Below, piece after piece: positions 23,949-39,692 of a stretch of 64,000 bases of DNA. Numbering within the stretch: the stretch's first letter is position 1; each line of letters begins with the position of its first letter. A program made the translations under genes and the position numbers. The notes under the pieces were generated by a model. It saw nothing but the letters and a program-made list of their open reading frames with translations. It was not told where the DNA came from and searched no databases. Source of the DNA: Syntrophales bacterium (GTDB taxonomy: Bacteria; Desulfobacterota; Syntrophia; Syntrophales; UBA2185); the NCBI GenBank assembly GCA_049521775.1, contig JBEKOL010000002.1, forward strand, positions 63,942 to 127,941, in the 5' to 3' direction.

Positions 23949-25955
23949 ATGAAATTTGTCGACAGGCTAATGAGTCAACTCTTCAAGTTGGATCTGCGCC
24001 GCCGCCTGATAGTGGGATTCCTGATTGCCACATGTCTCACCGGGTTCATAGCCACCGTCATCGGCATATGGACGATTAATAAGAGTACAATAGACGAAGT
24101 ACAAAACCGGGTCAGACAGGATATCAATACGGCAAAACTAATCTATAGAGAAACTCTGGAAAAGATAACTTCCCAGATTCAATTTACGGCAGAAGCAGTG
24201 GACCTGCACATAGCGATAGCCAACCATGACATATCTAAAATGGAGAACTTGAGGGGCCTAATCCGGCATCGGCGCGGTACTCAGGCAGAAGACGGCGATG
24301 TGTTCCTTGATATGCTCTTAGTGGTCGACGCCAAAGGGCGTGTCCTCTACAGGGCGGCGAACGCGAAAATCAGGGGGGACAGCATGCTCTGGACATCGGT
24401 CGTGAAAAACTGCATAGAAAAGAAGTCCACACAGGCATCTACTGAACTCATGCCCATTGATGACATTCTCAGGGAGAATCCCGATCTTGCCGGGCTGGTC
24501 AAGATAGAAATCATAAAAACTCCTCTCTCCTTCGAATCGAGTGAGAAGCAACTCTCCCAAGGCATGGTAATGATGGCAGCATATCCAATCCTTGATGAGA
24601 GAAAGCGATTAATCGGCGCCGTAGTCGGAGGGGTTCTCCTTAACAGAGACTATGCCATCGTGGATAAAATAAAGGAAACCGTATACCAGGGCGAAAAGTA
24701 TAAGGGCCGTGAAATGGGTGTGGCAACCATATTTCAGGGCGGTGTGAGAATAGCCACCAATGTCATGACGAAAGACGGCGAGAGGGCTGTCGGCACTATG
24801 TTGTCCAAGGAAGTCTATGACAGGGTTATAGTGGAAGGAAAAGACTGGGTCGGCAGGGCCTTCGTGGTAAATGACTGGTACATAACCACCTATACCCCCA
24901 TCTACGATATAAGCAGGAAGCTCATAGGGGCGCTCTATGTGGGCATTCTGGAGGCAAAGTACAGAGACATAAAATGGAATACCATATGGATCAACCTGGG
25001 CATTACATCTCTCGGCATGATCATCGCCTTTATTATCTCATTTAGACTGGGGGACACCATAATAAAGCGCATACGCATGCTGAAGGAGGCCGCAGAGTCT
25101 ATAGCCGCCGGCAATCTCGATTATAAATTATCGCCCGATAAAATATCCGGATTTGATATGCTGGATGAGGCCTTCAATTATATGTCGAAATCCCTGAAGA
25201 ACCACAATGAAATGCTCCACAGGGCTCACCAGCAACTGGCCAGAACGGAGAAGCTAACGGCATTGGGTGAAATGGCGGCGGGTGTGGCCCATGAGATAAA
25301 CAACCCGCTGGGGGGCATACTCCTTTACAGCAACCTTGTTCTCGAAGATATCCCTGAAAATTCTCCTGCAAGGGAAAATATGCAGAAGATAATCTACCAG
25401 ACAAACAGGTCAAAGAGGATCGTCCAGAGCCTGCTTGACTTCGCCAGGACGCCGACGGGCGAGATGCTGCCTTTGAATATAAACGGCGTCATTGAGAGTT
25501 CCCTCAGTCTGGTAAAGGACCAGGCAATGTTCCACGGTATAGAAATAAACACCCGTCTTGCAGAAGACCTTCCTGAAGTGATCGGTGACAAGTCCAGGCT
25601 GGAAGACGTATTTCTGAATCTGTTCATCAATGCCGCCGATGCCATGAAAGGCGGCGGAACGTTAACGATTACCACCATGCAGGGTGCCGATAATTCAGTG
25701 AAGATCCTGATCTCAGACACCGGCAAAGGAATAGAAGAAAAAGATTTGCCTCATATATTCGAGCCTTTCTTTACAACAAAAGAACCCGGCCAAGGGACCG
25801 GCCTCGGACTTCCCATAGTTTACGGTATCATCAGGAAGCATAATGGCTTTATCGATGCGGAAAGCAGGTCCGGAAAGGGAGCGACTTTCACTATCTCCCT
25901 TCCCGCACATTTGGGCAGATACAGCGGCATGGACGAAGACGTGTTTTACAGTTAA
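23949..25955 (+). CDS. sensor histidine kinase with large periplasmic Cache-like domain, HAMP, HisKA and HATPase_c
   Basis: An N-terminal TM helix, a ~300-aa extracytoplasmic region, a second TM helix followed by HAMP, an H-box EMAAGVAHEINNPL, and N/G boxes (NLFINAADAM, DTGKGI, GTGLGL). Confidence 0.9.
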   Translation: MKFVDRLMSQLFKLDLRRRLIVGFLIATCLTGFIATVIGIWTINKSTIDEVQNRVRQDINTAKLIYRETLEKITSQIQFTAEAVDLHIAIANHDISKMENLRGLIRHRRGTQAEDGDVFLDMLLVVDAKGRVLYRAANAKIRGDSMLWTSVVKNCIEKKSTQASTELMPIDDILRENPDLAGLVKIEIIKTPLSFESSEKQLSQGMVMMAAYPILDERKRLIGAVVGGVLLNRDYAIVDKIKETVYQGEKYKGREMGVATIFQGGVRIATNVMTKDGERAVGTMLSKEVYDRVIVEGKDWVGRAFVVNDWYITTYTPIYDISRKLIGALYVGILEAKYRDIKWNTIWINLGITSLGMIIAFIISFRLGDTIIKRIRMLKEAAESIAAGNLDYKLSPDKISGFDMLDEAFNYMSKSLKNHNEMLHRAHQQLARTEKLTALGEMAAGVAHEINNPLGGILLYSNLVLEDIPENSPARENMQKIIYQTNRSKRIVQSLLDFARTPTGEMLPLNINGVIESSLSLVKDQAMFHGIEINTRLAEDLPEVIGDKSRLEDVFLNLFINAADAMKGGGTLTITTMQGADNSVKILISDTGKGIEEKDLPHIFEPFFTTKEPGQGTGLGLPIVYGIIRKHNGFIDAESRSGKGATFTISLPAHLGRYSGMDEDVFYS

Positions 25956-25984
25956 TCTTATGAAATGAGAAGGGTGACTAAACA

Positions 25985-27328
25985 GTGACTTCGAAAGATA
26001 AAAAGATTCTGATTGTCGATGACGAGGAGTCCATGCGTGACGCATGCACACAAGTGCTGTCCCGCAAAGGGTACCAGGTAGAATGCACGGGAGACGCGCT
26101 TCGGGGGCTTGAGATGGCTCGAAAGGATATCTATGACGTGATCCTGTTGGATATCCGGATGCCCAAGATGGATGGATTAGAGATTCTCGTAAAGCTGAAA
26201 GTCGAAAGAAACATCTCTGCAAAAATCATTGTTATCACCGGCTATGCCAGCATCCCTATTGCCGTTGAGGCAATGAGGCAGGGCGCATTTAATTTCCTGA
26301 CGAAACCTTATTCCGCAGCCGATCTGAAAGGAGCGGTCGAGGATGCCCTCAAGCGGGACGAGAGCAACGCGGAAAAAGGACTTTCCCTGCTCAACGGCAC
26401 GAGCGACTATATGAAAGAGCTAAAGGAATCCATCAACCGGATAGCACAGACCGACAGCACCGTTCTGATTACGGGGGAGAGCGGGACAGGAAAAGAACTT
26501 GTGGCGCGCACCATCCACAATCTCAGCAGGAGGGCCAATCAACCATTCATCCCCGTAGACTGTTCCTCGCTGGTTGAGACCCTCATGGAAAGCGAACTGT
26601 TCGGACATGTCAAAGGGGCATTCAGCGGCGCGACGGAGTCGCGTGAGGGCCGTTTCCAGATGGCAGATAAGGGAACATTATTTCTTGACGAGATTTCCAA
26701 CATCAATCTCAACATTCAGGCCAAACTGCTTAGGGTAATCCAGGAACAGGAGGTACCCAAGGTTGGCAGATCATCGCCGGAACGGATAGATGTCAGGCTG
26801 ATTGCTGCAACGAATAGAGATATCCGCACAGAAATTGAAGCAGGAAGGTTCAGGGAGGATTTGTTCTACAGGCTTTCCGTTGTGCCTCTCCCCATAAAAC
26901 CATTGAGGGAACATAAAGCCGACATCCTGCCCATTGCTCAGCATTACCTTGATATATTCATAACGAAGTACGACAGCAAGGTGCGGTCATTTTCAGAAGA
27001 GGCAAAGAAGTCGCTCGTATCATACAGGTGGCCCGGCAATGTCAGGGAACTAAAGAACATCGTCGAGCGTCTATGCGTGCTGTGCGACCATGATGTCGTT
27101 AATCTATCTGATATATTTTATTATGGTCAGGACGATCAGGCAAAGGCCCCTGTGGTGGATTCTTCTACCGGCAGGATGACTCTAATAGATGTAGAAAAGG
27201 AACACATCGTAAAGGCTCTGAACCACTTTCACTTCCAGATCAATAAGACGGCAAAATTCCTCGGTATAGACAGGAAGACCCTCCGGATAAAGATGCGTAA
27301 TTATGGTATAAAGATGGAGCATCGTTAG
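25985..27328 (+). CDS. sigma-54-dependent response regulator (NtrC family: REC + AAA+ + Fis-type HTH)
   Basis: REC domain (ILIVDDE...LLDIRMP), Walker A GESGTGKE, the sigma-54 contact loop GAFSGA, and a C-terminal HTH ([19 protein letters not shown]). GTG start. Confidence 0.92.
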
Positions 27329-27345
27329 AAAAAACGTTGCCGCAA

Positions 27346-27382
27346 GGGGGTTATCCGCCTCAGAGACGGGGAGTTTTACCCC
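27346..27382. promoter_or_regulatory. candidate upstream activator sites (G4...C4 boxes)
   Basis: GGGGGTTATCCGCC (27346-27359) and GGGGAGTTTTACCCC (27368-27382), starting about 22 bp apart and 65-100 bp upstream of the sigma-54 -24 element. They loosely resemble the palindromes at 39756-39793. Confidence 0.3.
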
Positions 27383-27445
27383 TCAAAGTTTCCCTTTTCC
27401 TACCACTCTCTATATTTTTTCTTTATAAATCAATAAGTTACAATC

Positions 27446-27461
27446 TGGCATCATCCTTGCT
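27446..27461 (+). promoter_or_regulatory. sigma-54 (-24/-12) promoter
   Basis: TGGCAT-CATCC-TTGCT with exact GG-N10-GC spacing. It lies 40 nt upstream of the ATG at 27501 and immediately downstream of the enhancer-binding-protein gene. Confidence 0.75.
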
Positions 27462-27500
27462 CATATTAATTATAAAAATCAAAAATGGAGGTAATGAACG

Positions 27501-27887
27501 ATGACAAAGAAAAAAATTCTCTTAATAGACGATGACAAAGATTTTCTATTCGCAACCAAACTAATTCTCGAAAAGGGCGGGTATGAGGTGTTCCTGGCAG
27601 AAGACGGCAAGAGCGGAGTTGAGATGTGGAAATCCGTGACCCCTGACCTTGCTATCATCGATATGATGATGGAGACATGGGGTGAAGGGTTCTCAGTATT
27701 GAAAAAAATCCGCGCCACAGACACCGGGAAGGATACGCCTCTTTTCATGTTGAGCGCCGTAGACTTGCAGGGTCCGTACCAGTCGTTTGAACCGCCGGCA
27801 GAATTTCCCAAGGTGAACAGGGTATTGCACAAACCGGTGAAGGCTGATGATCTCCTCGGATATATTGCCCAGGCGCTGGGAAAATAA
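27501..27887 (+). CDS. single-domain response regulator (CheY-like receiver)
   Basis: KILLIDDD...DLAIIDMMM...HKP, a standard REC layout of 128 aa. GGAGG RBS. Confidence 0.88.
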   Translation: MTKKKILLIDDDKDFLFATKLILEKGGYEVFLAEDGKSGVEMWKSVTPDLAIIDMMMETWGEGFSVLKKIRATDTGKDTPLFMLSAVDLQGPYQSFEPPAEFPKVNRVLHKPVKADDLLGYIAQALGK

Positions 27888-27892
27888 TCGGC

Positions 27893-29026
27893 ATGATGAA
27901 TGTTCAAAAACCTCTCATTTTGATCATTGATGATGAGGAATCCCTACGGGATGGATGCAGGCAGACGCTGGAAAGGTCGGGGTATGTCGTCTTGACTGCG
28001 GGGGAGGGGGTCGACGGCATCAAGATCGCGAGGGAGAATAAACCGGACATAGCCTTTGTAGATCTTAAAATGCCAGGTATATCGGGTATGGAAATCATTG
28101 AAATCCTCTCCAGAGATATACCTGATATTATCCTTATCATGATTACCGGCTACGCAACCATAGTCTCCGCTGTGGAAGCCATACAGAAAGGGGCCTATGA
28201 CTACCTTCCGAAACCGTTCAGCCCCGACCAGTTGCGGGCTGTCGCCAGGCGAGGACTTGAGCATCGTAACCTCAGGATAGAAACGAGAATTTTGAGGGAA
28301 GAAAAGGAGCGGATGGAGAGAGATTTCATTACGTTTGTAAGCCACGAAATGCGTTCCCCTCTGGTCGTCATCAGGCAATGCATGGAATCTCTCAAAGCAA
28401 TCGCCGGCAATCGCTTCGATAAAGACGTCACAGACCTTATTGAGAGATGCAGTACGCGTGTCGAGAATCTTGAGGGATTGATTGAACACTGGCTGGATCT
28501 CAGCCGAATAGAAAACGGCACCTTTGCACAAAAGAAAGAGTCCTTGAGGTTATCAGACGTCATTTCGCTCAGCGCCGAGGAATTGATGCCTATATGCAAC
28601 GAAAGAGGAATTGCACTTGAGGTAAATGTGCCGGAAAATTTATTCCAAATTGTCGGGGATGAGGAAAGCCTAGTCAGAGTATTTATCAATATCATAGGCA
28701 ATGCAACAAAATATACGCCGGATGGCGGCAGAATATGTGTCTCTGCCCGGAACGGCGAGTACTATGTTACTGTGAACATTTCGGATACAGGGATTGGCAT
28801 TCCCCAGGACAAGCTCCCCTTTATCTTTGAGCCGTTTTTCAGAGCAGGGGGCAAGGAAGAACGCCACAGAGGGTCCGGTCTCGGATTGACTTTTTGCAAG
28901 AAGATCATGGATTCTCACGGCGGGGAAATAGGCGCCACATCGAAGGAAGGTGAAGGCACAACCTGTATATTGAAATTTCCCGTTCCCCATACCAGAGCTG
29001 ATAAAGTTTCTGAGGCCCCGGCATAG
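27893..29026 (+). CDS. hybrid response regulator / histidine kinase (REC + HisKA + HATPase_c)
   Basis: REC domain (ILIIDDE...FVDLKMP...KPF), an H-box FVSHEMRSPL, and N/G boxes (NIIGNATKYT, DTGIGI, GSGLGL). Confidence 0.9.
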   Translation: MMNVQKPLILIIDDEESLRDGCRQTLERSGYVVLTAGEGVDGIKIARENKPDIAFVDLKMPGISGMEIIEILSRDIPDIILIMITGYATIVSAVEAIQKGAYDYLPKPFSPDQLRAVARRGLEHRNLRIETRILREEKERMERDFITFVSHEMRSPLVVIRQCMESLKAIAGNRFDKDVTDLIERCSTRVENLEGLIEHWLDLSRIENGTFAQKKESLRLSDVISLSAEELMPICNERGIALEVNVPENLFQIVGDEESLVRVFINIIGNATKYTPDGGRICVSARNGEYYVTVNISDTGIGIPQDKLPFIFEPFFRAGGKEERHRGSGLGLTFCKKIMDSHGGEIGATSKEGEGTTCILKFPVPHTRADKVSEAPA

Positions 29027-33542: not shown

Positions 33543-34031
33543 TTATACTGGCAGAGAGGCCGACAGTAAAGGCAGGATCGCCATCATGTCGCCGATGATC
33601 TCTTCGGCTATGGCGGGGAGCTTTTCATTGAGATCTATCGATAGACTCTCATCGAAGGTTACTTCACTACCTATTTCGACACCGTAGACTGCGGCAAGGC
33701 GAGGCATCTCAAAGCCGCATTGCACGCCGAGTTCCATAAGCTCAAAGATATTTAAGCCGTGCGAGGTAAAGAGATGCAGCGTGCCGCAGCGGTCATCTGC
33801 GCCGATCTTCTTGAGTTCTCCCATCTTTCCTTCTTTCGTGGTCATGGCATCGATGATGAAGATAGTATCGTAGCCCATGATTAAGTCGAAGAGGGAAAGG
33901 CCGATCATGGCGCTTGCTGCGACATCCGCCCCGCGGATTTTGTTCCGGAGCATTTCGGCGAGCGCCAGACCCACTCCGTCATCCGACAGGATGGGATTGC
34001 CCATGCCAAGGATAAGAGTCTTCATTGTCAA
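33543..34031 (-). CDS. hydrogenase maturation endopeptidase (HyaD/FrhD family)
   Basis: LILGMGNPILSDDGVGL N-terminus, an FIIDA segment, and 162 aa length. It is the last gene of the hydrogenase operon. Confidence 0.88.
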   Translation of the reverse strand: MTMKTLILGMGNPILSDDGVGLALAEMLRNKIRGADVAASAMIGLSLFDLIMGYDTIFIIDAMTTKEGKMGELKKIGADDRCGTLHLFTSHGLNIFELMELGVQCGFEMPRLAAVYGVEIGSEVTFDESLSIDLNEKLPAIAEEIIGDMMAILPLLSASLPV

Positions 34032-34098
34032 TTCAGTCCTCCGACATCCCTCGTTTCATAAAGAAACGAAATATGCATCTTTCAATACCTCCCATCTA

Positions 34099-35559
34099 TC
34101 ATCGGCTTATTTCCCTGATCACTCTTCCTTCGTGATCTCTAATCTTTACCTGGAGCGGCATTGTGCCGGGCAGTGAGTGGGTGGCGCAGGAGAGACAGGG
34201 ATCGTAGGCCCGAAACGCCATTTCCACCATGTTCAGGAAGCCCTCCTTTACGTCCGGGCCGTGGACAAATTCCTGGGCGGCCTTCTTTACGGACAGGCAG
34301 ATGGGGGCGGCATTATTTTGCGTAGCCACGATGAGGTTGACTTTCGTGAGTATGCCTTCGTCATCGGTTTCGTAGTGGTGGAAGAGTGTTCCCCGGGGCG
34401 CCTCCACACATCCCACGCCCTTGTTTTTGAGCTTGAGATTCATGTTTCTGATATCTTTGCTGGTGAGCCGTGGTTCATCCGCGATGATCACATTATTCTC
34501 CGCGGCCTGAAGCGCGCAGATGAGCCGTGCCCAGTGCGTGGCGAGCGTGTGATGAGCGGGCTTGCCTCCCAGGGTATCGAACATGATCTCCGCTTCTTTT
34601 TGCGCAAGCGGGGTCTGCATGGCGCTGGCTACGTTGAGCCTGGCGAGCGGCGCGACACGGTATAGCGACGTACCGTTGCCTTCCGTGAGCCCCTGCCAGC
34701 CAAGCTGTCTTAAGTGGTTGAGTCTGATGTATGTCCACGGCTCCACCCATTCACCGATATGCTGGTCATAGTCGCGGGGATGGAATCTCACGTATTCTTT
34801 GCCTTCAGGGTCGATGACCTTGACCGTCCCGTCATAAAAGACAGCCCTGTCGTTCTCATCCACCAGGGCCATGTAATAAGTCTTCAGCTTATAGGCATCG
34901 TTCAGGATCAGATCCACGTAGGACTTGTTTGTGAGAACTACATCCTTGAAGAGCTGAATGGCGAATTTGGCGAAGTCGAGAGAAAATACGGCGGTGTCTT
35001 TGACCCATTTCCGGTCCTGCTCGGTAAATCCCCTCGGTACGCCACCGGGCAACCCGCCTTCCGGGTGCGGCGCCTTGGTGAAGATATGCCGGATGATGTC
35101 CCGGTTTCTCTTTCTGACCTCAATGACCTTGATGCCTATTTCCTTGCCCACCTTGCCGATAACGCCGAGGATGTTTCGCTCTTTCGGATCGGCGTGTGGA
35201 CCAACGACAAAATCGGGCGCCGCGAGGAAGAAGAAGTGTATGTAATGGTCCTCAATATAGAAGGCATTGAATTCGAGTTCCCTGATCAGCCTTGCCGCCG
35301 GGGTGGGCTCAACACTGTAAAGGTCGTCGAGTGCTTTGGTGGCAGCCATGTGGTGCGCTGAAGGGCAGACGCCGCATATATTCGGTACGATTCTCGGCAT
35401 CTCCTCTGCGGGTCTGCCGAGGCAGAAACGCTCAAACCCCCGCAGTTCGGCCACCTGCCAATAGGCATCCTTTACGTCGCCTTTCTCATCGAGAAGCAAT
35501 TCTATCTTCCCGTGTCCTTCAAGCCTGGTGATCGGGTCTATGGTTATTTTTCGCGCCAT
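34099..35559 (-). CDS. [NiFe] hydrogenase large subunit, MvhA-like (group 3)
   Basis: ITIDPITRLEGHGKI N-terminus, the L1 motif ICGVCPSAH, and a C-terminal DPCLSCATH Ni-ligand motif (Cys, not Sec). It is 486 aa. Confidence 0.92.
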   Translation of the reverse strand: MARKITIDPITRLEGHGKIELLLDEKGDVKDAYWQVAELRGFERFCLGRPAEEMPRIVPNICGVCPSAHHMAATKALDDLYSVEPTPAARLIRELEFNAFYIEDHYIHFFFLAAPDFVVGPHADPKERNILGVIGKVGKEIGIKVIEVRKRNRDIIRHIFTKAPHPEGGLPGGVPRGFTEQDRKWVKDTAVFSLDFAKFAIQLFKDVVLTNKSYVDLILNDAYKLKTYYMALVDENDRAVFYDGTVKVIDPEGKEYVRFHPRDYDQHIGEWVEPWTYIRLNHLRQLGWQGLTEGNGTSLYRVAPLARLNVASAMQTPLAQKEAEIMFDTLGGKPAHHTLATHWARLICALQAAENNVIIADEPRLTSKDIRNMNLKLKNKGVGCVEAPRGTLFHHYETDDEGILTKVNLIVATQNNAAPICLSVKKAAQEFVHGPDVKEGFLNMVEMAFRAYDPCLSCATHSLPGTMPLQVKIRDHEGRVIREISR

Positions 35560-35561
35560 GA

Positions 35562-36539
35562 TTATTTCTCCTTTTTGTTGCTCTTTCGTTTCAGCGACGC
35601 CGAAGGGAGACTGAAGCGGTAACAGTAGCCTGCCAGGTCGGCAATACCTTCGATGACTTTTCCGGCCTCCGCCTCACTTTCTGCGCCGATGAGCGAGGCC
35701 AGTCCGGAGATTAACTTCGCACCCGCGTCATCCACACCGTCAACAGGACCGAAGCAACCTCTGCAGGGAATATTGGTTCTGATGCATGTTTCGCCGCACC
35801 CTGAGCGGATCGCGGGCCCTGCGCAGAGAACGCCCTGTGCCAGGAAACACTGGTCGTCTTTCGCTTCAATCTCGTGTATCCTTTTAAACTCCGAAATTTC
35901 CATCCTCAGCGGCTTGGATTTGTTCCGTGGACAGGCGTCGCACAAGGGCTTAGTCGGTGCGAGCGTCGCGCCTCTGGGAGGCAGCTTGTCTTCCAGGACG
36001 GCAAAGACCGCGTTTGCTATGAGTTCCGGCGGCGGCGGACATCCCGGCAGATAGTAGTCCACGTGGATAATATCGTGGAGCGGATATACGCGGTCAAAGA
36101 ATTCCGGCAGCGTCAACTTGTTTCCGTTGACTTTAGTTTCAGTCTGGGGCCTGTTTTTATTCGGGTTCACCACTGTCGGCGCATCCTGGTAGACCCAGTT
36201 GAAAATTTCCTCTTTTGAAATAAAATTCGCCAACCCCGCGGTTCCTCCAAAGCAGGCGCAGGCGCCAAAGGCCAGTACAAGCTGGGATTTTTCCCGGAGG
36301 AGCTTGGCCATCTCTTCCTGTTCTGAATTACGCACGGACCCATGAAGGATGGAGAGGGCTATCTCACCCTTCTTCATCTTGCGGATGCTTTCGTACTTGA
36401 AGTCTAAGGCGACAGGCCACAGCACGATATCCACGGCATCGGCGACCGTTAGAATCACTTCGTTCAGATCCACTATGGCCTCATCGCAGCCGGCGCAGGA
36501 TGCGAGCCAGTAAATTGCTACCTTGGGTTTCTCTGCCAT
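35562..36539 (-). CDS. [NiFe] hydrogenase small subunit, MvhG-like
   Basis: KVAIYWLASCAGCDEAIVDL, FGACACFGG, and distal-cluster cysteines. The ATG at 36539 follows GGAGG; the ORF-track start at 36623 is less likely. Confidence 0.9.
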   Translation of the reverse strand: MAEKPKVAIYWLASCAGCDEAIVDLNEVILTVADAVDIVLWPVALDFKYESIRKMKKGEIALSILHGSVRNSEQEEMAKLLREKSQLVLAFGACACFGGTAGLANFISKEEIFNWVYQDAPTVVNPNKNRPQTETKVNGNKLTLPEFFDRVYPLHDIIHVDYYLPGCPPPPELIANAVFAVLEDKLPPRGATLAPTKPLCDACPRNKSKPLRMEISEFKRIHEIEAKDDQCFLAQGVLCAGPAIRSGCGETCIRTNIPCRGCFGPVDGVDDAGAKLISGLASLIGAESEAEAGKVIEGIADLAGYCYRFSLPSASLKRKSNKKEK

Positions 36540-36588
36540 ATTTTCCTCCAATCTTCCCTTTTGCTCCTTATACGTAAACTTACCCAAA

Positions 36589-36984
36589 TCACACTGCAAC
36601 CGAAAGGGGCCCCAAACTCTCAATCTCTTTTTTCATTTCTTCGATGAAGACAGGGATTTTCGTGCCTTCCGGGTCAAGGCTCAGCGCAATCTTGAGACGT
36701 CTGGGCTCGATGCCGAATTCTTTGAGCGTCTTGCGTAATAGAAGCACCCTCTTTCTTGCCTGGTAGTTGCCAGTCTGAAAATGGCATTCCTTATCGGGGC
36801 AGCCTAATATAAGCACTCCGTCTGCCCCTTCCTTGAAGGCATCTATGATATGCGTGGCGTCCACCTTGCCGCTGCAGGCCACCGGAATAAGGTTTATCAG
36901 CTTCTTGGCATAGCCGTTACCGCTCAGATAGCCCCACCCGAATTTACAGGAGAAGCATACAAGTTTGGGGGTGAACTCCTTCAT
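36589..36984 (-). CDS. methyl-viologen-reducing hydrogenase delta subunit-like protein (MvhD/FlpD)
   Basis: LVCFSCKFGWGY...IPVACSGKVDATHIIDAFKEGADGVLILGCPDKECHF is the MvhD signature. The ATG at 36984 follows GGAGG. Confidence 0.88.
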   Translation of the reverse strand: MKEFTPKLVCFSCKFGWGYLSGNGYAKKLINLIPVACSGKVDATHIIDAFKEGADGVLILGCPDKECHFQTGNYQARKRVLLLRKTLKEFGIEPRRLKIALSLDPEGTKIPVFIEEMKKEIESLGPLSVAV

Positions 36985-37056
36985 ATTATCCTCCTCGTGA
37001 CTATTTTCGTAAAACCCATTCATCAGAATAGTTGCATTTCCCTTGAGATTATCATG

Positions 37057-37683
37057 TCACAGTATGCTGCCTGTGAACAAATGTGGTGGGCATCCTTCCG
37101 GCGCCCACTGGGCAATAAGTTCTGCGTCTAATTGAACGCCTGCTTCATCCCCAAAGAAGATAATCCCATCCGACTGCTGATTTAGATAATCGACGAATAA
37201 TCTTCTTTTTACCGAAGCTGCCTTCTCATACTTCTTACGGGCCAATTTCACAGGGGTGTCGATCGCGTGAAGCCAGTTAATCAGCTGAGTGCGTCCTATA
37301 ACGATCCCATGTCTCTCTTTCAGGTACCTTCTGACCAGGGGATTGTCCCAGCGCGACTGCATGTATCCTTGATTCATCGGTGACTGAATTAATGTCTTTT
37401 TCAGATCTTCTGCGATATCAGCCGTTAGCTGGCATGGGCGGCCGAGATGCTGGTCCTCGAGCCCCTTTGTGCCTTCCGTGTTTATCCTTTTTACAAGATT
37501 ATAGATACCCTGCCGGGACATCTTGCGCCGGCGACTTAGGTGATCTATAGGCACTTTATCAATGACACCCTGCAAAATAGCTATCCTCAATCCCACACGA
37601 CCATGGCATTGTCGCGATAAATATTCATCCAAAGAAGCATGTGTAATCTCAGGATGCGTAATCATAAGTTTAGATGTTGCCAT
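37057..37683 (-). mobile_element. IS630-family transposase remnant (N-terminal 208 aa only)
   Basis: Two winged-HTH modules (MSRQGIYNLVKRI; RWDNPLVRRYLKERHGIVIGRTQLINWL) and the start of the DDE_3 domain (IIFFGDEAG). It then stops, with only about 70 nt left before mvhD. No terminal inverted repeats were identified. Confidence 0.7.
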
Positions 37684-37724
37684 ATTCTCAACTCCGTCTC
37701 ATTTGAATTCTGAAATAATGATCC

Positions 37725-39524
37725 TTAAAACGAAGCATAGACTTCGGCGATACGTTCTTCCATATCGGAGCCTATCAGTTCTCTTGCGCCGGCCGGGCAG
37801 GATGATACGCACATGCCGCAGGCCTTGCATCTGAATATGTCGGTGGCGGATACCAGGTGGCCGCCCTGCTCCTTGAGATAGGCCGCTCCGTAATGGCAGG
37901 ATGATAGACATATCCCGCACCCGCTGCACAGGTGCTCGTGAACAACAACGGAGGGCAGTTCGTCCTGCATACCGATGGATATGCAGGCCTTGCACGAGAC
38001 GCAGGGGCCGCAGCAGAGACAGCGCCTTGCCTCCTCGATGGCCTCTTTGAGGGTAAACCCTTTCTCGAACATCTGGAAGTGTACGCGCTTCTCTGCCGGT
38101 ATCCATACCACCTCGGGCTCAGACCTGTAATCTTCATCCTTGAGCTGTGGTATCTCGAATGCCTCAAATTCTTTTTTTCTGCCGGCCCTGACATCAATTC
38201 CCTTGAGATAACGCTCAATGGACTCCGCCGCCTCCTGGCCTTCCCGCATGGCATCCACCATAAAGCCGACCCTTCGCACGTCGCCACCTATAAAGACCCA
38301 GTCTTTGTTGCTGCTCTGAAGCGTGAGAGGATCCACAGCCAGCCGTCCATTTTCATCCAAGAGGCCTTCTCCCTGGAGAAACTCTCTATCCGGTCCCTGA
38401 CCGACGGTGATGATAAGGGCATCGCCGTCTATAGTGACGGTTTTTCCGGTGTCGAATTCCGGATTGAACCTGCCATCTTTATCGAAGACGCTCGTGCATT
38501 TAGGGGATACTATGCCTGTGAATCTTCCTTCCTCGCCCAATATCTTGCTTACGCCGCGGGAGTATATGGTCCTTATGCCTTCTTCCCAGGCGCCCCGGAT
38601 TTCCTCATGATCCGCGGGAATACCGTCTTTCGAGGACTTGTCCTCTGATTCGAGGGCCACCAGGGTGACGTCTCCACCGAGTCTCTTAGCTGATCGCGCC
38701 GCATCAAAGGCCACATTGCCGCCGCCTATGACGATAACCTTTTTGCCGCCCAAGTAGTCTTTCACAAGGATGCCGCGACTTACCTCATACAGGAACGTCT
38801 GCCCATACATGACGCCGTCCAGATCCTGGTTCTCCACCATTTCCCGACCAAAGGTAAGAACTCTCGGCGTGGGCGTTCCTTTGGCGATAAACACTGCCTT
38901 GTACCCGTCCTTCCTCAGTTTATCGAGGGTGAGATTCCCCTCTCCGATCCTGGAATTGTATCTTACTTCTACGCCAGCGACCCTCAGCATGTTTTCTATG
39001 ACTCTCTGAAGCACAATTTTTGGCAGGCGATAGTGGGGAATCAGCCAGAGCGCCCCTCCCAGTCTGCCTGAAGACTCGAAGATAGTTACTCTGTAGCCTT
39101 TTCTGCCGAGGTGAAAGGCGCACATCAACCCGCCCGGGCCTCCGCCTATGACAGCTACGTTTCCCTTGTCCTTAACGATGTCGTATTCTTTTTTTTCATC
39201 GAGGTGGTCTAAGAAATAGTCGGATACAAACCGCTTCAAGAGTCTCCTTCTGATGGAACCTCCCTTGCTCTGGTAATTACAACCCAACTCGCATATACCG
39301 CAGACATAGCCGCACACAGGGAAAAGCGGATTGTTCTCAAAAAGATAGTCCCCGATCTGGATCAAACCTTCTTTGGCCTGCTTGATATCTTCCGGCAGCA
39401 GAGAGATGAGAACGTTTGTGCGCTGGATATCCTCATTGATGGGACATCGCTCCTGACAAGGTGCGAGACACTGCTTGATGGCAGGCTCTACAGACGCCTC
39501 TCCCTGGATGGTGGTCTTCCACAT
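37725..39524 (-). CDS. GltD/NfnB-like FAD/NAD(P)H oxidoreductase with N-terminal Fe-S and C-terminal 2x[4Fe-4S] ferredoxin domains
   Basis: CLAPCQERCPINEDI, VAVIGGGPGGLMCAFHLGRKGYRVTIFESSGRLGGAL, a second Rossmann motif VIGGGNVAFD, and a C-terminal CLCCGPCVSCKAC...CSGCGICLSSC...CKACGMCVSSCP. Confidence 0.85.
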   Translation of the reverse strand: MWKTTIQGEASVEPAIKQCLAPCQERCPINEDIQRTNVLISLLPEDIKQAKEGLIQIGDYLFENNPLFPVCGYVCGICELGCNYQSKGGSIRRRLLKRFVSDYFLDHLDEKKEYDIVKDKGNVAVIGGGPGGLMCAFHLGRKGYRVTIFESSGRLGGALWLIPHYRLPKIVLQRVIENMLRVAGVEVRYNSRIGEGNLTLDKLRKDGYKAVFIAKGTPTPRVLTFGREMVENQDLDGVMYGQTFLYEVSRGILVKDYLGGKKVIVIGGGNVAFDAARSAKRLGGDVTLVALESEDKSSKDGIPADHEEIRGAWEEGIRTIYSRGVSKILGEEGRFTGIVSPKCTSVFDKDGRFNPEFDTGKTVTIDGDALIITVGQGPDREFLQGEGLLDENGRLAVDPLTLQSSNKDWVFIGGDVRRVGFMVDAMREGQEAAESIERYLKGIDVRAGRKKEFEAFEIPQLKDEDYRSEPEVVWIPAEKRVHFQMFEKGFTLKEAIEEARRCLCCGPCVSCKACISIGMQDELPSVVVHEHLCSGCGICLSSCHYGAAYLKEQGGHLVSATDIFRCKACGMCVSSCPAGARELIGSDMEERIAEVYASF

Positions 39525-39676: not shown

Positions 39677-39692
39677 AGCAATACCGATGCCA
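39677..39692 (-). promoter_or_regulatory. sigma-54 (-24/-12) promoter for the oxidoreductase-hydrogenase operon
   Basis: The minus strand reads TGGCAT-CGGTA-TTGCT with exact GG-N10-GC spacing, about 150 nt upstream of the ATG at 39524. Confidence 0.7.

Follow-up and report, generated by a model that had tools for sequence, protein, structure and literature searches.

An NfnB/DsrL-like flavoprotein encoded with an Mvh-type [NiFe] hydrogenase in Syntrophales and other anaerobes: a candidate H2:NAD(H) oxidoreductase

In the group 3c [NiFe] hydrogenases of methanogens (MvhADG-HdrABC and VhuADG-Hdr; 5ODC, 9SW2 and 9SFI), an MvhA-like large subunit, an MvhG-type small subunit with three clusters and the [2Fe-2S] protein MvhD form a module that works with heterodisulfide reductase (Hdr). 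In HydDB, group 3c is entered as Hdr-linked, and the only 'GltD-linked' class is one of [FeFe] hydrogenases (PMC5037454). An HdrA into which a GltD domain is inserted, known as HdrL or type III HdrA, has also been described, in some cases beside mvhADG (PMC2702500, PMC12054007, PMC9012536). Moreover, Syntrophobacter fumaroxidans has two cytoplasmic hydrogenases, Mvh1 (Sfum_3535-37, three genes), which is reported to have a subunit binding flavin adenine dinucleotide (FAD) and nicotinamide adenine dinucleotide (NAD), and Mvh2 (Sfum_3954-57, four genes); both were barely detected in proteomes, and the papers contain no enzyme assays (PMC5947623, PMC8691401, PMC10787695). Here we describe an operon of a Syntrophales bacterium (assembly GCA_049521775.1, contig JBEKOL010000002.1, positions 63,942 to 127,941; this stretch of 64,000 nucleotides is called the window) in which mvhD-, mvhG- and mvhA-like genes are encoded together with an NfnB/GltD/DsrL-like flavoprotein.

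The six minus-strand open reading frames (ORFs) that an earlier note on this DNA had placed between 39524 and 33543 were all recovered there. We propose, with a probability of roughly 0.55, that the operon encodes a soluble heterotetrameric [NiFe] hydrogenase, MvhA-MvhG-MvhD-flavoprotein, acting as a reversible, linear and non-bifurcating H2:NAD(H) oxidoreductase, in which the flavoprotein would take the place that HdrA holds in methanogens. The hydrogenase module is of the same make as that of the methanogens, and in both cases the MvhD adaptor is placed, here by modelling, on a 2x[4Fe-4S] domain of the HdrA C-terminal ferredoxin type. However, the operon lacks the thioredoxin-reductase-like flavin domain of HdrA as well as HdrB and HdrC, and the partner is instead a GltD/NfnB-fold protein with a pyridine-nucleotide site, for which heterodisulfide chemistry is not expected.

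The linkage of the flavoprotein gene to mvhDGA is kept over wide taxonomic distances. Gene order was compared by tblastn in 79 loci fetched by the flavoprotein family, and the order flavoprotein-mvhD-mvhG-mvhA was found in every locus of at least 55% identity with enough downstream DNA (about 60 loci). The hosts belong to Syntrophales, Syntrophobacteraceae, Desulfobacterales, Geobacteraceae, Dehalococcoidia and Acidobacteriota, together with one Halobacteriota metagenome-assembled genome (MAG); for instance, contigs from Syntrophales, Syntrophobacteraceae and Dehalococcoidia with homologues at 91%, 82% and 65% identity, respectively, share it. A Dehalococcoidales clade at about 52% identity has a different arrangement, mvhG-mvhA-flavoprotein-protease-mvhD, and in a few family members the hydrogenase is not nearby. 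In the loci inspected, no other gene is conserved beside the cassette from one phylum to the next.

The flavoprotein and MvhD are moreover joined in a single ORF of 722-733 amino acids in several lineages (L075-L078, L082, L092, L102 and the representative P0129), with the Pfam FlpD domain at residues 627-720 of the fused products. Among 301 sampled genomes of the window's phylum, ten (its own included) match at 55% identity or more, in a patchy distribution, and fused-length open frames of 729-739 amino acids occur in four of the ten. Since the order is kept across phyla and fusion has occurred repeatedly, the comparative evidence for a single functional unit of flavoprotein and MvhD is strong. 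The gene order in about 60 loci, these fusions and a complex model that passed its controls (see below) bear out the idea, first put forward in the earlier note, that the flavoprotein is the dedicated partner instead of HdrABC.

The subunit composition had, on the other hand, been taken for unusual, and this view does not hold. Close homologues of the flavoprotein number in the thousands under generic names such as 'FAD-dependent oxidoreductase' or 'glutamate synthase beta subunit-like', and a scan with two family-specific peptides over one genome per prokaryotic species gave at least 556 species-level genomes with confirmed relatives. The Mvh1 and Mvh2 clusters of S. fumaroxidans, with their FAD/NAD-binding subunits, were already in the literature; the counts of three and four genes fit the fused and unfused forms of the cassette, a likeness drawn from the published descriptions.

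The flavoprotein (599 amino acids; 37725-39524, minus strand) was characterised by Pfam, NCBIfam and PDB profile searches, an AlphaFold2 model compared by Foldseek, and an alignment of 32 orthologues. Pfam recovers a Fer4_20 domain of the DPD/GltD type at the N-terminus, Pyr_redox_2 and a C-terminal Fer4 dicluster. The cysteines of the N-terminal Fe-S domain are at residues 23, 27, 71, 75, 78 and 82, a linker of about 85 residues carries five more (502, 505, 508, 511 and 514), and the C-terminal 2x[4Fe-4S] domain holds Cys533-543 and Cys566-576. Both Rossmann motifs, GGGPGG at 127 for FAD and GGGNVA at 267 for NAD(P), are intact and invariant among the 32 orthologues. The double Rossmann signature and the C-terminal 2x[4Fe-4S] module noticed earlier are both present, and so is the nucleotide site whose absence would have spoken against an NAD(P)H-linked enzyme.

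A profile of the flavoprotein family retrieved from the PDB NfnA of NfnABC (9n5u, 2e-62), NfnL (5jca_L), Xfn, Thermotoga maritima NfnB, StnC (8oh5_C), DPD and GltD, with the alignment to StnC running over residues 19-577. NfnA, StnC and 9bov_A are the best full-length neighbours, followed by NfnL, DPD and GltD, and Foldseek ranked them as the sequences did (pLDDT, the predicted local distance difference test score, was 76.7 for the model). Among NCBIfam models, PRK12771 ('NAD(P)-binding protein') fits best, with 322 bits where the cut-off is 516. In StnC of the Stn transhydrogenase (8OH5) and in NfnA of NfnABC (9N5U, 9BOV) a GltD-fold FAD/NAD(P)H site likewise feeds two electrons singly into a [4Fe-4S] chain leading to another catalytic module, and that of StnC is a non-bifurcating input from NADPH to the wire (PMC10482914). 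However, in those enzymes it is part of a fused NuoG-like subunit and supplies a flavin mononucleotide bifurcation module of the HydBC type, whereas here it is free-standing and would feed a [NiFe] hydrogenase via MvhD.

With NfnB/NfnL of NfnAB (4YLF, 5JCA), GltD and DPD the flavoprotein shares the fold over residues 20-440 (Foldseek template-modelling score by target about 0.7, about 30% identity), and with NfnB/NfnL the FAD and dinucleotide motifs and five N-terminal cluster ligands, but it has in addition the linker and the C-terminal ferredoxin domain, and the operon has no gene for an NfnA/NfnS partner. The same order of domains is reported for DsrL (PMC7596348), to which we liken the flavoprotein by the published description: an Fe-S domain at the N-terminus, FAD and within it NAD(P), then a linker of about 85-100 residues, and 2x[4Fe-4S] at the C-terminus. 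DsrL also lacks the N-terminal RCLxC cysteines of NfnB, but its partner is DsrAB rather than MvhD and a hydrogenase. HdrL or type III HdrA likewise joins a GltD-type NAD(P)H module with MvhD, in Bathyarchaeota together with an Mvh hydrogenase, and an HdrL of 1124 amino acids followed by MvhD is encoded elsewhere in this genome (contig C51); the flavoprotein, by comparison, has of HdrA only the C-terminal ferredoxin domain, without the flavin domain.

Three other identities were considered and rejected. HdrA matches in the PDB profile search are limited to residues 517-595 and those of the HdrA NCBIfam models to residues 516-591, which is the C-terminal ferredoxin domain, and the thioredoxin-reductase-like FAD domain with the HdrA cluster set is absent. 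The tail resembles the stretch of HdrA that lies ahead of the MvhD fused to it in HdrA2 (571-631 of 777 in the NCBIfam model; 577-633 in 5odc_A; also 9sfi_A). GltD models score far below their cut-offs (TIGR01317, 126 bits against 448; TIGR01318, 169 against 483), and no GltB-like ORF is nearby. Finally, DsrL is set aside because the gene has no linkage to dsrAB: it belongs to the hydrogenase operon on contig C2, and dsrAB is found on C1.

In NfnB/NfnL the two N-terminal [4Fe-4S] clusters are held by seven cysteines and one glutamate. The N-terminal domain here has six of NfnB's seven cysteines, and equivalents of NfnB Cys39 and Cys42 (RCLxC) are absent from it. An RCLxC-like element, EARRCLCCGPC, is found instead at 495-508, after the FAD domain, with its cysteine pair at 502-505, and is aligned by HMMER to the NfnL N-terminus; the absent ligands may come from it, or it may hold an additional cluster. 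Judged by the alignment to 5jca_L (domain 1), it is plausible that region 480-514 is a circular permutation of the 'EAxRCLxC' N-terminus of NfnL.

The hydrogenase subunits are of the Mvh/Vhu type. The large subunit (MvhA-like, 486 amino acids; 34099-35559, minus strand; PF00374, NiFeSe_Hases) has the Ni-Fe ligand motifs CGVC (residue 62) and DPCLSCATH (residue 453) as well as a C-terminal extension of 25 amino acids for proteolytic maturation. The NCBIfam model VhuA fits it best (366 bits, against 173 for the next model), although its equivalog cut-off of 800 is not reached, and in the PDB it scores 364 bits with 7t2r_D, 327-335 with Vhu/MvhA chains and 302 with the NAD-reducing 5xf9_D, the neighbours being 7t2r_D, 9sw2_F and 5odc_F. 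By this NCBIfam and PDB similarity the large subunit is placed in the neighbourhood of groups 3c and 3d. The small subunit (MvhG type, 325 amino acids; 35562-36539, minus strand; PF01058, Oxidored_q6) scores 204 bits with VhuG against 67 with the next family, and its 14 cysteines are enough for three [4Fe-4S] clusters. The MvhD-like [2Fe-2S] subunit (131 amino acids; 36589-36984, minus strand) matches PF02662 (FlpD/MvhD) at 110 bits, and Cys13, Cys37, Cys62 and Cys67 are invariant in the alignment of 32 orthologues.

All three subunits score below the cut-offs of the curated VhuA, VhuG and VhuD models. The operon shows the large-subunit motifs and similarity, the MvhG-type small subunit and the MvhD that define Mvh/Vhu group 3c, and lacks its association with HdrABC. 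The start of mvhD is most likely the ATG at 36984, which is preceded by a ribosome-binding site and agrees with the N-termini of the orthologues, rather than 37023, and that of mvhG most likely 36539 rather than 36623. A hydrogenase maturation endopeptidase (162 amino acids; 33543-34031, minus strand) closes the operon; it scores 77 bits with TIGR00072, whose cut-off is 47.

A model of the flavoprotein with MvhD, built with a 32-row orthologue alignment for each partner, reached an interface score (ipSAE) of 0.72 against 0.00 for the best of three controls, a result that supports binding. Such a score is reached by 58 of 80 solved complexes and by two of 110 mismatched pairs, counts that are rough as the alignments were self-supplied. 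The runs share at least 89% of contacts, and the pLDDT of the partner is at least 85. On the side of the flavoprotein the modelled interface comprises 567-575, the loop of the Cys566/569/572 cluster, and the helix 583-599, and on the side of MvhD it comprises 30-42 and 65-72, the Cys37 and Cys67 loops; as modelled, this geometry is what electron transfer would need. MvhD additionally contacts residues 42-49 of the N-terminal Fe-S domain in the model, and this suggests that the tethered C-terminal ferredoxin domain occupies the site where a free ferredoxin would bind.

In the proposed reaction, H2 would be split at the Ni-Fe site of MvhA, and the electrons would pass over the three MvhG clusters to the [2Fe-2S] cluster of MvhD. 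Docked on the HdrA-like C-terminal 2x[4Fe-4S] domain, MvhD would hand them on through the linker and the N-terminal clusters to FAD, which would reduce a pyridine nucleotide (NAD+ is the likeliest), or every step would run the other way. We read the enzyme as non-bifurcating because this wire would be linear. With H2 at 1-10 Pa, as is typical of methanogenic peat, the H+/H2 couple lies at about -270 to -300 mV, so that NADH-driven H2 formation would need no ferredoxin.

The flavin could instead be the site of electron bifurcation or confurcation, as the earlier note had allowed. An NfnB-type FAD would then take a hydride from NAD(P)H and split its electrons, of which one would reach the hydrogenase by the C-terminal domain and MvhD and the other ferredoxin by the N-terminal clusters; or, run in reverse, it would couple H2, reduced ferredoxin and NAD(P)+. 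NfnL and NfnB, the nearest relatives of single-domain type, do carry a bifurcating FAD, and the hydride site with two separate Fe-S modules, N- and C-terminal, is what a bifurcating centre needs; the low-energy anaerobic lifestyle of the host would also suit it. Arg166 of the YRLP motif is invariant and falls, by our reading of the alignment, on the NfnB arginine that contacts flavin N5 and whose role has been described (PMC10482914). However, the same arginine is kept in StnC, which does not bifurcate (PMC10482914), and the structures that match over the full length are input modules that do not bifurcate, those of StnC and of NfnA from NfnABC. The operon has no second flavoprotein of the NfnA/NfnS type (PyrK-like, with [2Fe-2S] and FAD), and the modelled contact of MvhD with residues 42-49 suggests that the site for free ferredoxin is taken. 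The potentials of H+/H2 and NAD+/NADH also seem too close for an obvious pair of high- and low-potential acceptors.

As the StnC and NfnA modules are linear inputs, we consider bifurcation the less likely reading, and a new class of bifurcating or confurcating [NiFe] hydrogenase, in which H2 formation would be coupled to NADH oxidation and ferredoxin at an NfnB-type FAD, in one direction or the other, appears unlikely to us. If it were true, it would mean an Hdr- and HydABC-independent way of balancing NADH, ferredoxin and H2 in syntrophs and Dehalococcoidia.

For the linear H2:NAD(H) enzyme, the nucleotide can be judged from the second Rossmann domain. The YRR motif of NfnB/NfnL, which holds the 2'-phosphate of NADPH in NfnB and whose presence or absence follows the use of NADP(H) or NAD(H) in the assayed DsrL enzymes (PMC7596348), gives way to ALE(S/C)EDK where the flavoprotein is aligned with 9n5u_A and 5jca_L, and this Rossmann domain carries a five-residue acidic insertion. 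StnC and NfnA bind NADPH, and NfnA keeps YRR, whereas the family studied here does not. In addition, Glu292 is near-invariant among the 32 orthologues. Because YRR is missing and Glu292 is so well kept, NAD(H) is predicted over NADP(H), with moderate confidence. The earlier suggestion of a soluble NAD(P)H-linked hydrogenase stands as far as a soluble, pyridine-nucleotide-linked enzyme is concerned, which is the best reading, but with YRR missing NADH is likelier than NADPH.

The loss of YRR and the acidic insertion may also be read in another way, namely that the flavoprotein does not use pyridine nucleotides and, as an Fe-S/FAD hub, relays electrons elsewhere, for instance to a polysulfide or disulfide substrate, the DsrC/Dsr system or another protein. 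Every NCBIfam family score is below its cut-off, DsrL-like proteins of the same architecture work with the protein partner DsrAB (PMC7596348), and dsrAB is encoded in the genome: dsrA (559 bits, above the cut-off) and an adjacent dsrB-like gene are at C1:178592-180761, with a CCG-domain protein about 4 kb away, and the Syntrophales MAG therefore has a dissimilatory sulfite reductase. However, dsrAB is on a different contig, and the cassette has no further conserved gene across phyla. The GxGxxA motif of the second Rossmann domain and its surrounding residues are moreover invariant in the 32 orthologues from several phyla, and an acidic residue after beta-2 is the classical signature of NAD. 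An acceptor other than a pyridine nucleotide seems improbable on this balance.

The window was said to contain no hdrABC, which is correct, and there is no CCG-domain match on its contig. A search of the whole genome, which the earlier note had proposed as a check, gave a different picture for the remaining contigs of this 3.8 Mb, 99.9% complete assembly, where Hdr-like genes do occur. At C51:8445-18613 (L031) three POR genes are followed by HdrL, MvhD, a fused HdrBC of 410 amino acids and an HdrA made of two ORFs (202 and 610 amino acids), the second of which ends in an MvhD domain; a selenocysteine codon or a frameshift could account for the break. At C37:5556-10783 (L032) an HdrA-like protein (570 amino acids), MvhD, a 283-amino-acid protein that belongs to no known family and a molybdopterin protein resembling FdhA (683 amino acids) are encoded, a gene content that may represent an Hdr-linked formate dehydrogenase module. 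Further CCG-domain proteins are on contigs C40, C3, C1, C68 and C81.

These HdrA-like, HdrBC-like and HdrL-like proteins (on C51, C37, C40 and C3) make it conceivable that MvhADG keeps its canonical function and docks on an HdrABC encoded elsewhere, in line with the Hdr-linked description of group 3c in HydDB, and that the flavoprotein is an unrelated neighbour or a minor alternative partner. However, each Hdr-type module has its own MvhD and adjoins POR or Fdh genes, with no hydrogenase adjacent, and conversely no hdr gene adjoins the cassette in any locus inspected. The flavoprotein-MvhD fusions and the strict synteny across phyla also speak against a chance neighbour, and we regard a purely canonical role as very improbable.

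A second [NiFe] hydrogenase is encoded at C3:127591-131408 (L030:7592-11409). Its large subunit of 476 amino acids is 45% identical to MvhA, and it has a short HoxY-like small subunit (187 amino acids) and a NuoG-like subunit (604 amino acids), with a CoA-transferase gene upstream and no adjacent NuoE or NuoF genes. In many Dehalococcoidia the cassette itself adjoins a second hydrogenase cluster (L028/L029:1-7454; second matches in L041, L043, L044, L054, L055, L061 and L069), which in L028/L029 is composed of NuoE, a NuoF-GltD fusion of 1029 amino acids, a NuoG-like subunit and small and large [NiFe] subunits, and two hydrogenases with GltD modules are thus adjacent there.

Between the flavoprotein gene and mvhD lies an ORF for a protein that consists of a helix-turn-helix (HTH) domain only (208 amino acids; 37057-37683, minus strand; HTH_32), derived from an IS630-family transposase. 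Its 3' end is about 70 nucleotides ahead of mvhD. Identity as an IS630 transposase was rejected: the NCBIfam model matches at 74 bits (cut-off 100) over positions 2-172 of 299, and the catalytic DDE domain is absent. The insert of about 700 nucleotides is found in one Syntrophales lineage only, always at the same site (L033:7842-8468, L034:7826-8464, L024:9842-10480 and also L025), and is absent from all other loci. The ORF is intact at 208-212 amino acids in all carriers, except for a gene call of 158 amino acids in L025. Pairwise ratios of nonsynonymous to synonymous divergence (dN/dS) in four genomes are 0.14-0.26 at dS 0.6-1.8, against 0.02-0.08 for the flanking genes, indicating that the ORF is maintained by selection, though less tightly than its neighbours. 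On these ratios a decaying pseudogene was rejected, and what had been called an IS630 remnant is better described, from its pattern of divergence, as a domesticated DNA-binding HTH protein than as a stump.

Such an insert, present in this lineage only, raises the question whether the operon is broken here, with the flavoprotein split from mvhDGA and the two halves no longer cooperating. Weak sigma-70-like matches are indeed found directly upstream of mvhD (37077-37048 and 37013-36985). However, promoter-like matches, like the terminators of the same scan, are no commoner than in shuffled sequence, which makes their counts uninformative on co-transcription; no terminator-like site was predicted on the minus strand between 39524 and 36984, and the insert has the same orientation as the operon. 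Since all flanking genes are also intact and show the low dN/dS given above across the four insert-bearing genomes, a broken operon is hardly to be expected.

Upstream of the flavoprotein gene, by about 150 nucleotides, we found a sigma-54 -24/-12-like element, TGGCAT-N5-TTGCT (39677-39692, minus strand), with one mismatch to TGGCAC-N5-TTGCW as confirmed by direct reading, and further upstream a GGGGGTAATATTACCCC palindrome. Over the whole window the pattern turns up no more often than chance would have it, and it is the position of the element that speaks for it. Genes for a sigma-54 activator, a receiver protein and a REC-histidine-kinase accompany the hydrogenase operon in the window (23949-29026) and in the flanks of L024 and L026; they are downstream of the operon in L024/L025 and upstream in Syntrophobacteraceae (L026). 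One relative of the flavoprotein, P0125 (724 amino acids, 54% identical), ends in a receiver domain of the response-regulator kind (PF00072 at 609-719), where others carry MvhD.

Several points weigh against a linear NAD(H)-linked enzyme. The linearity of the wire is our inference, and an independent route from the C-terminal clusters to FAD is just what bifurcation would require. With six of the seven cysteines of NfnB in the N-terminal domain, the cluster content is uncertain. The invariant Lys296 aligns near the RR position, and it is for this reason that confidence in NAD(H) is only moderate. Solved HdrA-MvhD complexes may have shaped the docking model in part, since the domain on which MvhD is placed is HdrA-like. 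The HTH ORF could uncouple the expression of the flavoprotein and mvhD in this lineage. Finally, literature searches found no biochemical or structural study of a free-standing NfnB-like flavoprotein with MvhDGA.

The cassette is real and widespread among uncultured anaerobes, and its parts, an Mvh-type hydrogenase and an NfnB/DsrL-like NAD(H) flavoprotein, are known ones. In the HydDB table MvhA-like subunits are labelled 'group 3c, heterodisulfide-reductase-linked, bifurcating' (PMC5037454), and this label is applied in genome and metagenome surveys. If the bacterial members that bear the flavoprotein are simple H2:NAD(H) enzymes, models of H2 cycling in peat, sediments, aquifers and digesters would assign the wrong reaction and the wrong energetics to Dehalococcoidia, Syntrophales, Syntrophobacteraceae and Desulfobacterales. 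With four genes, or three if fused, the cassette is compact enough to be tractable for expression and cryo-electron microscopy. For a syntroph, a hydrogenase linked to NADH and able to work only while the H2 partial pressure is low would offer a direct route for reoxidising the NADH of beta-oxidation.

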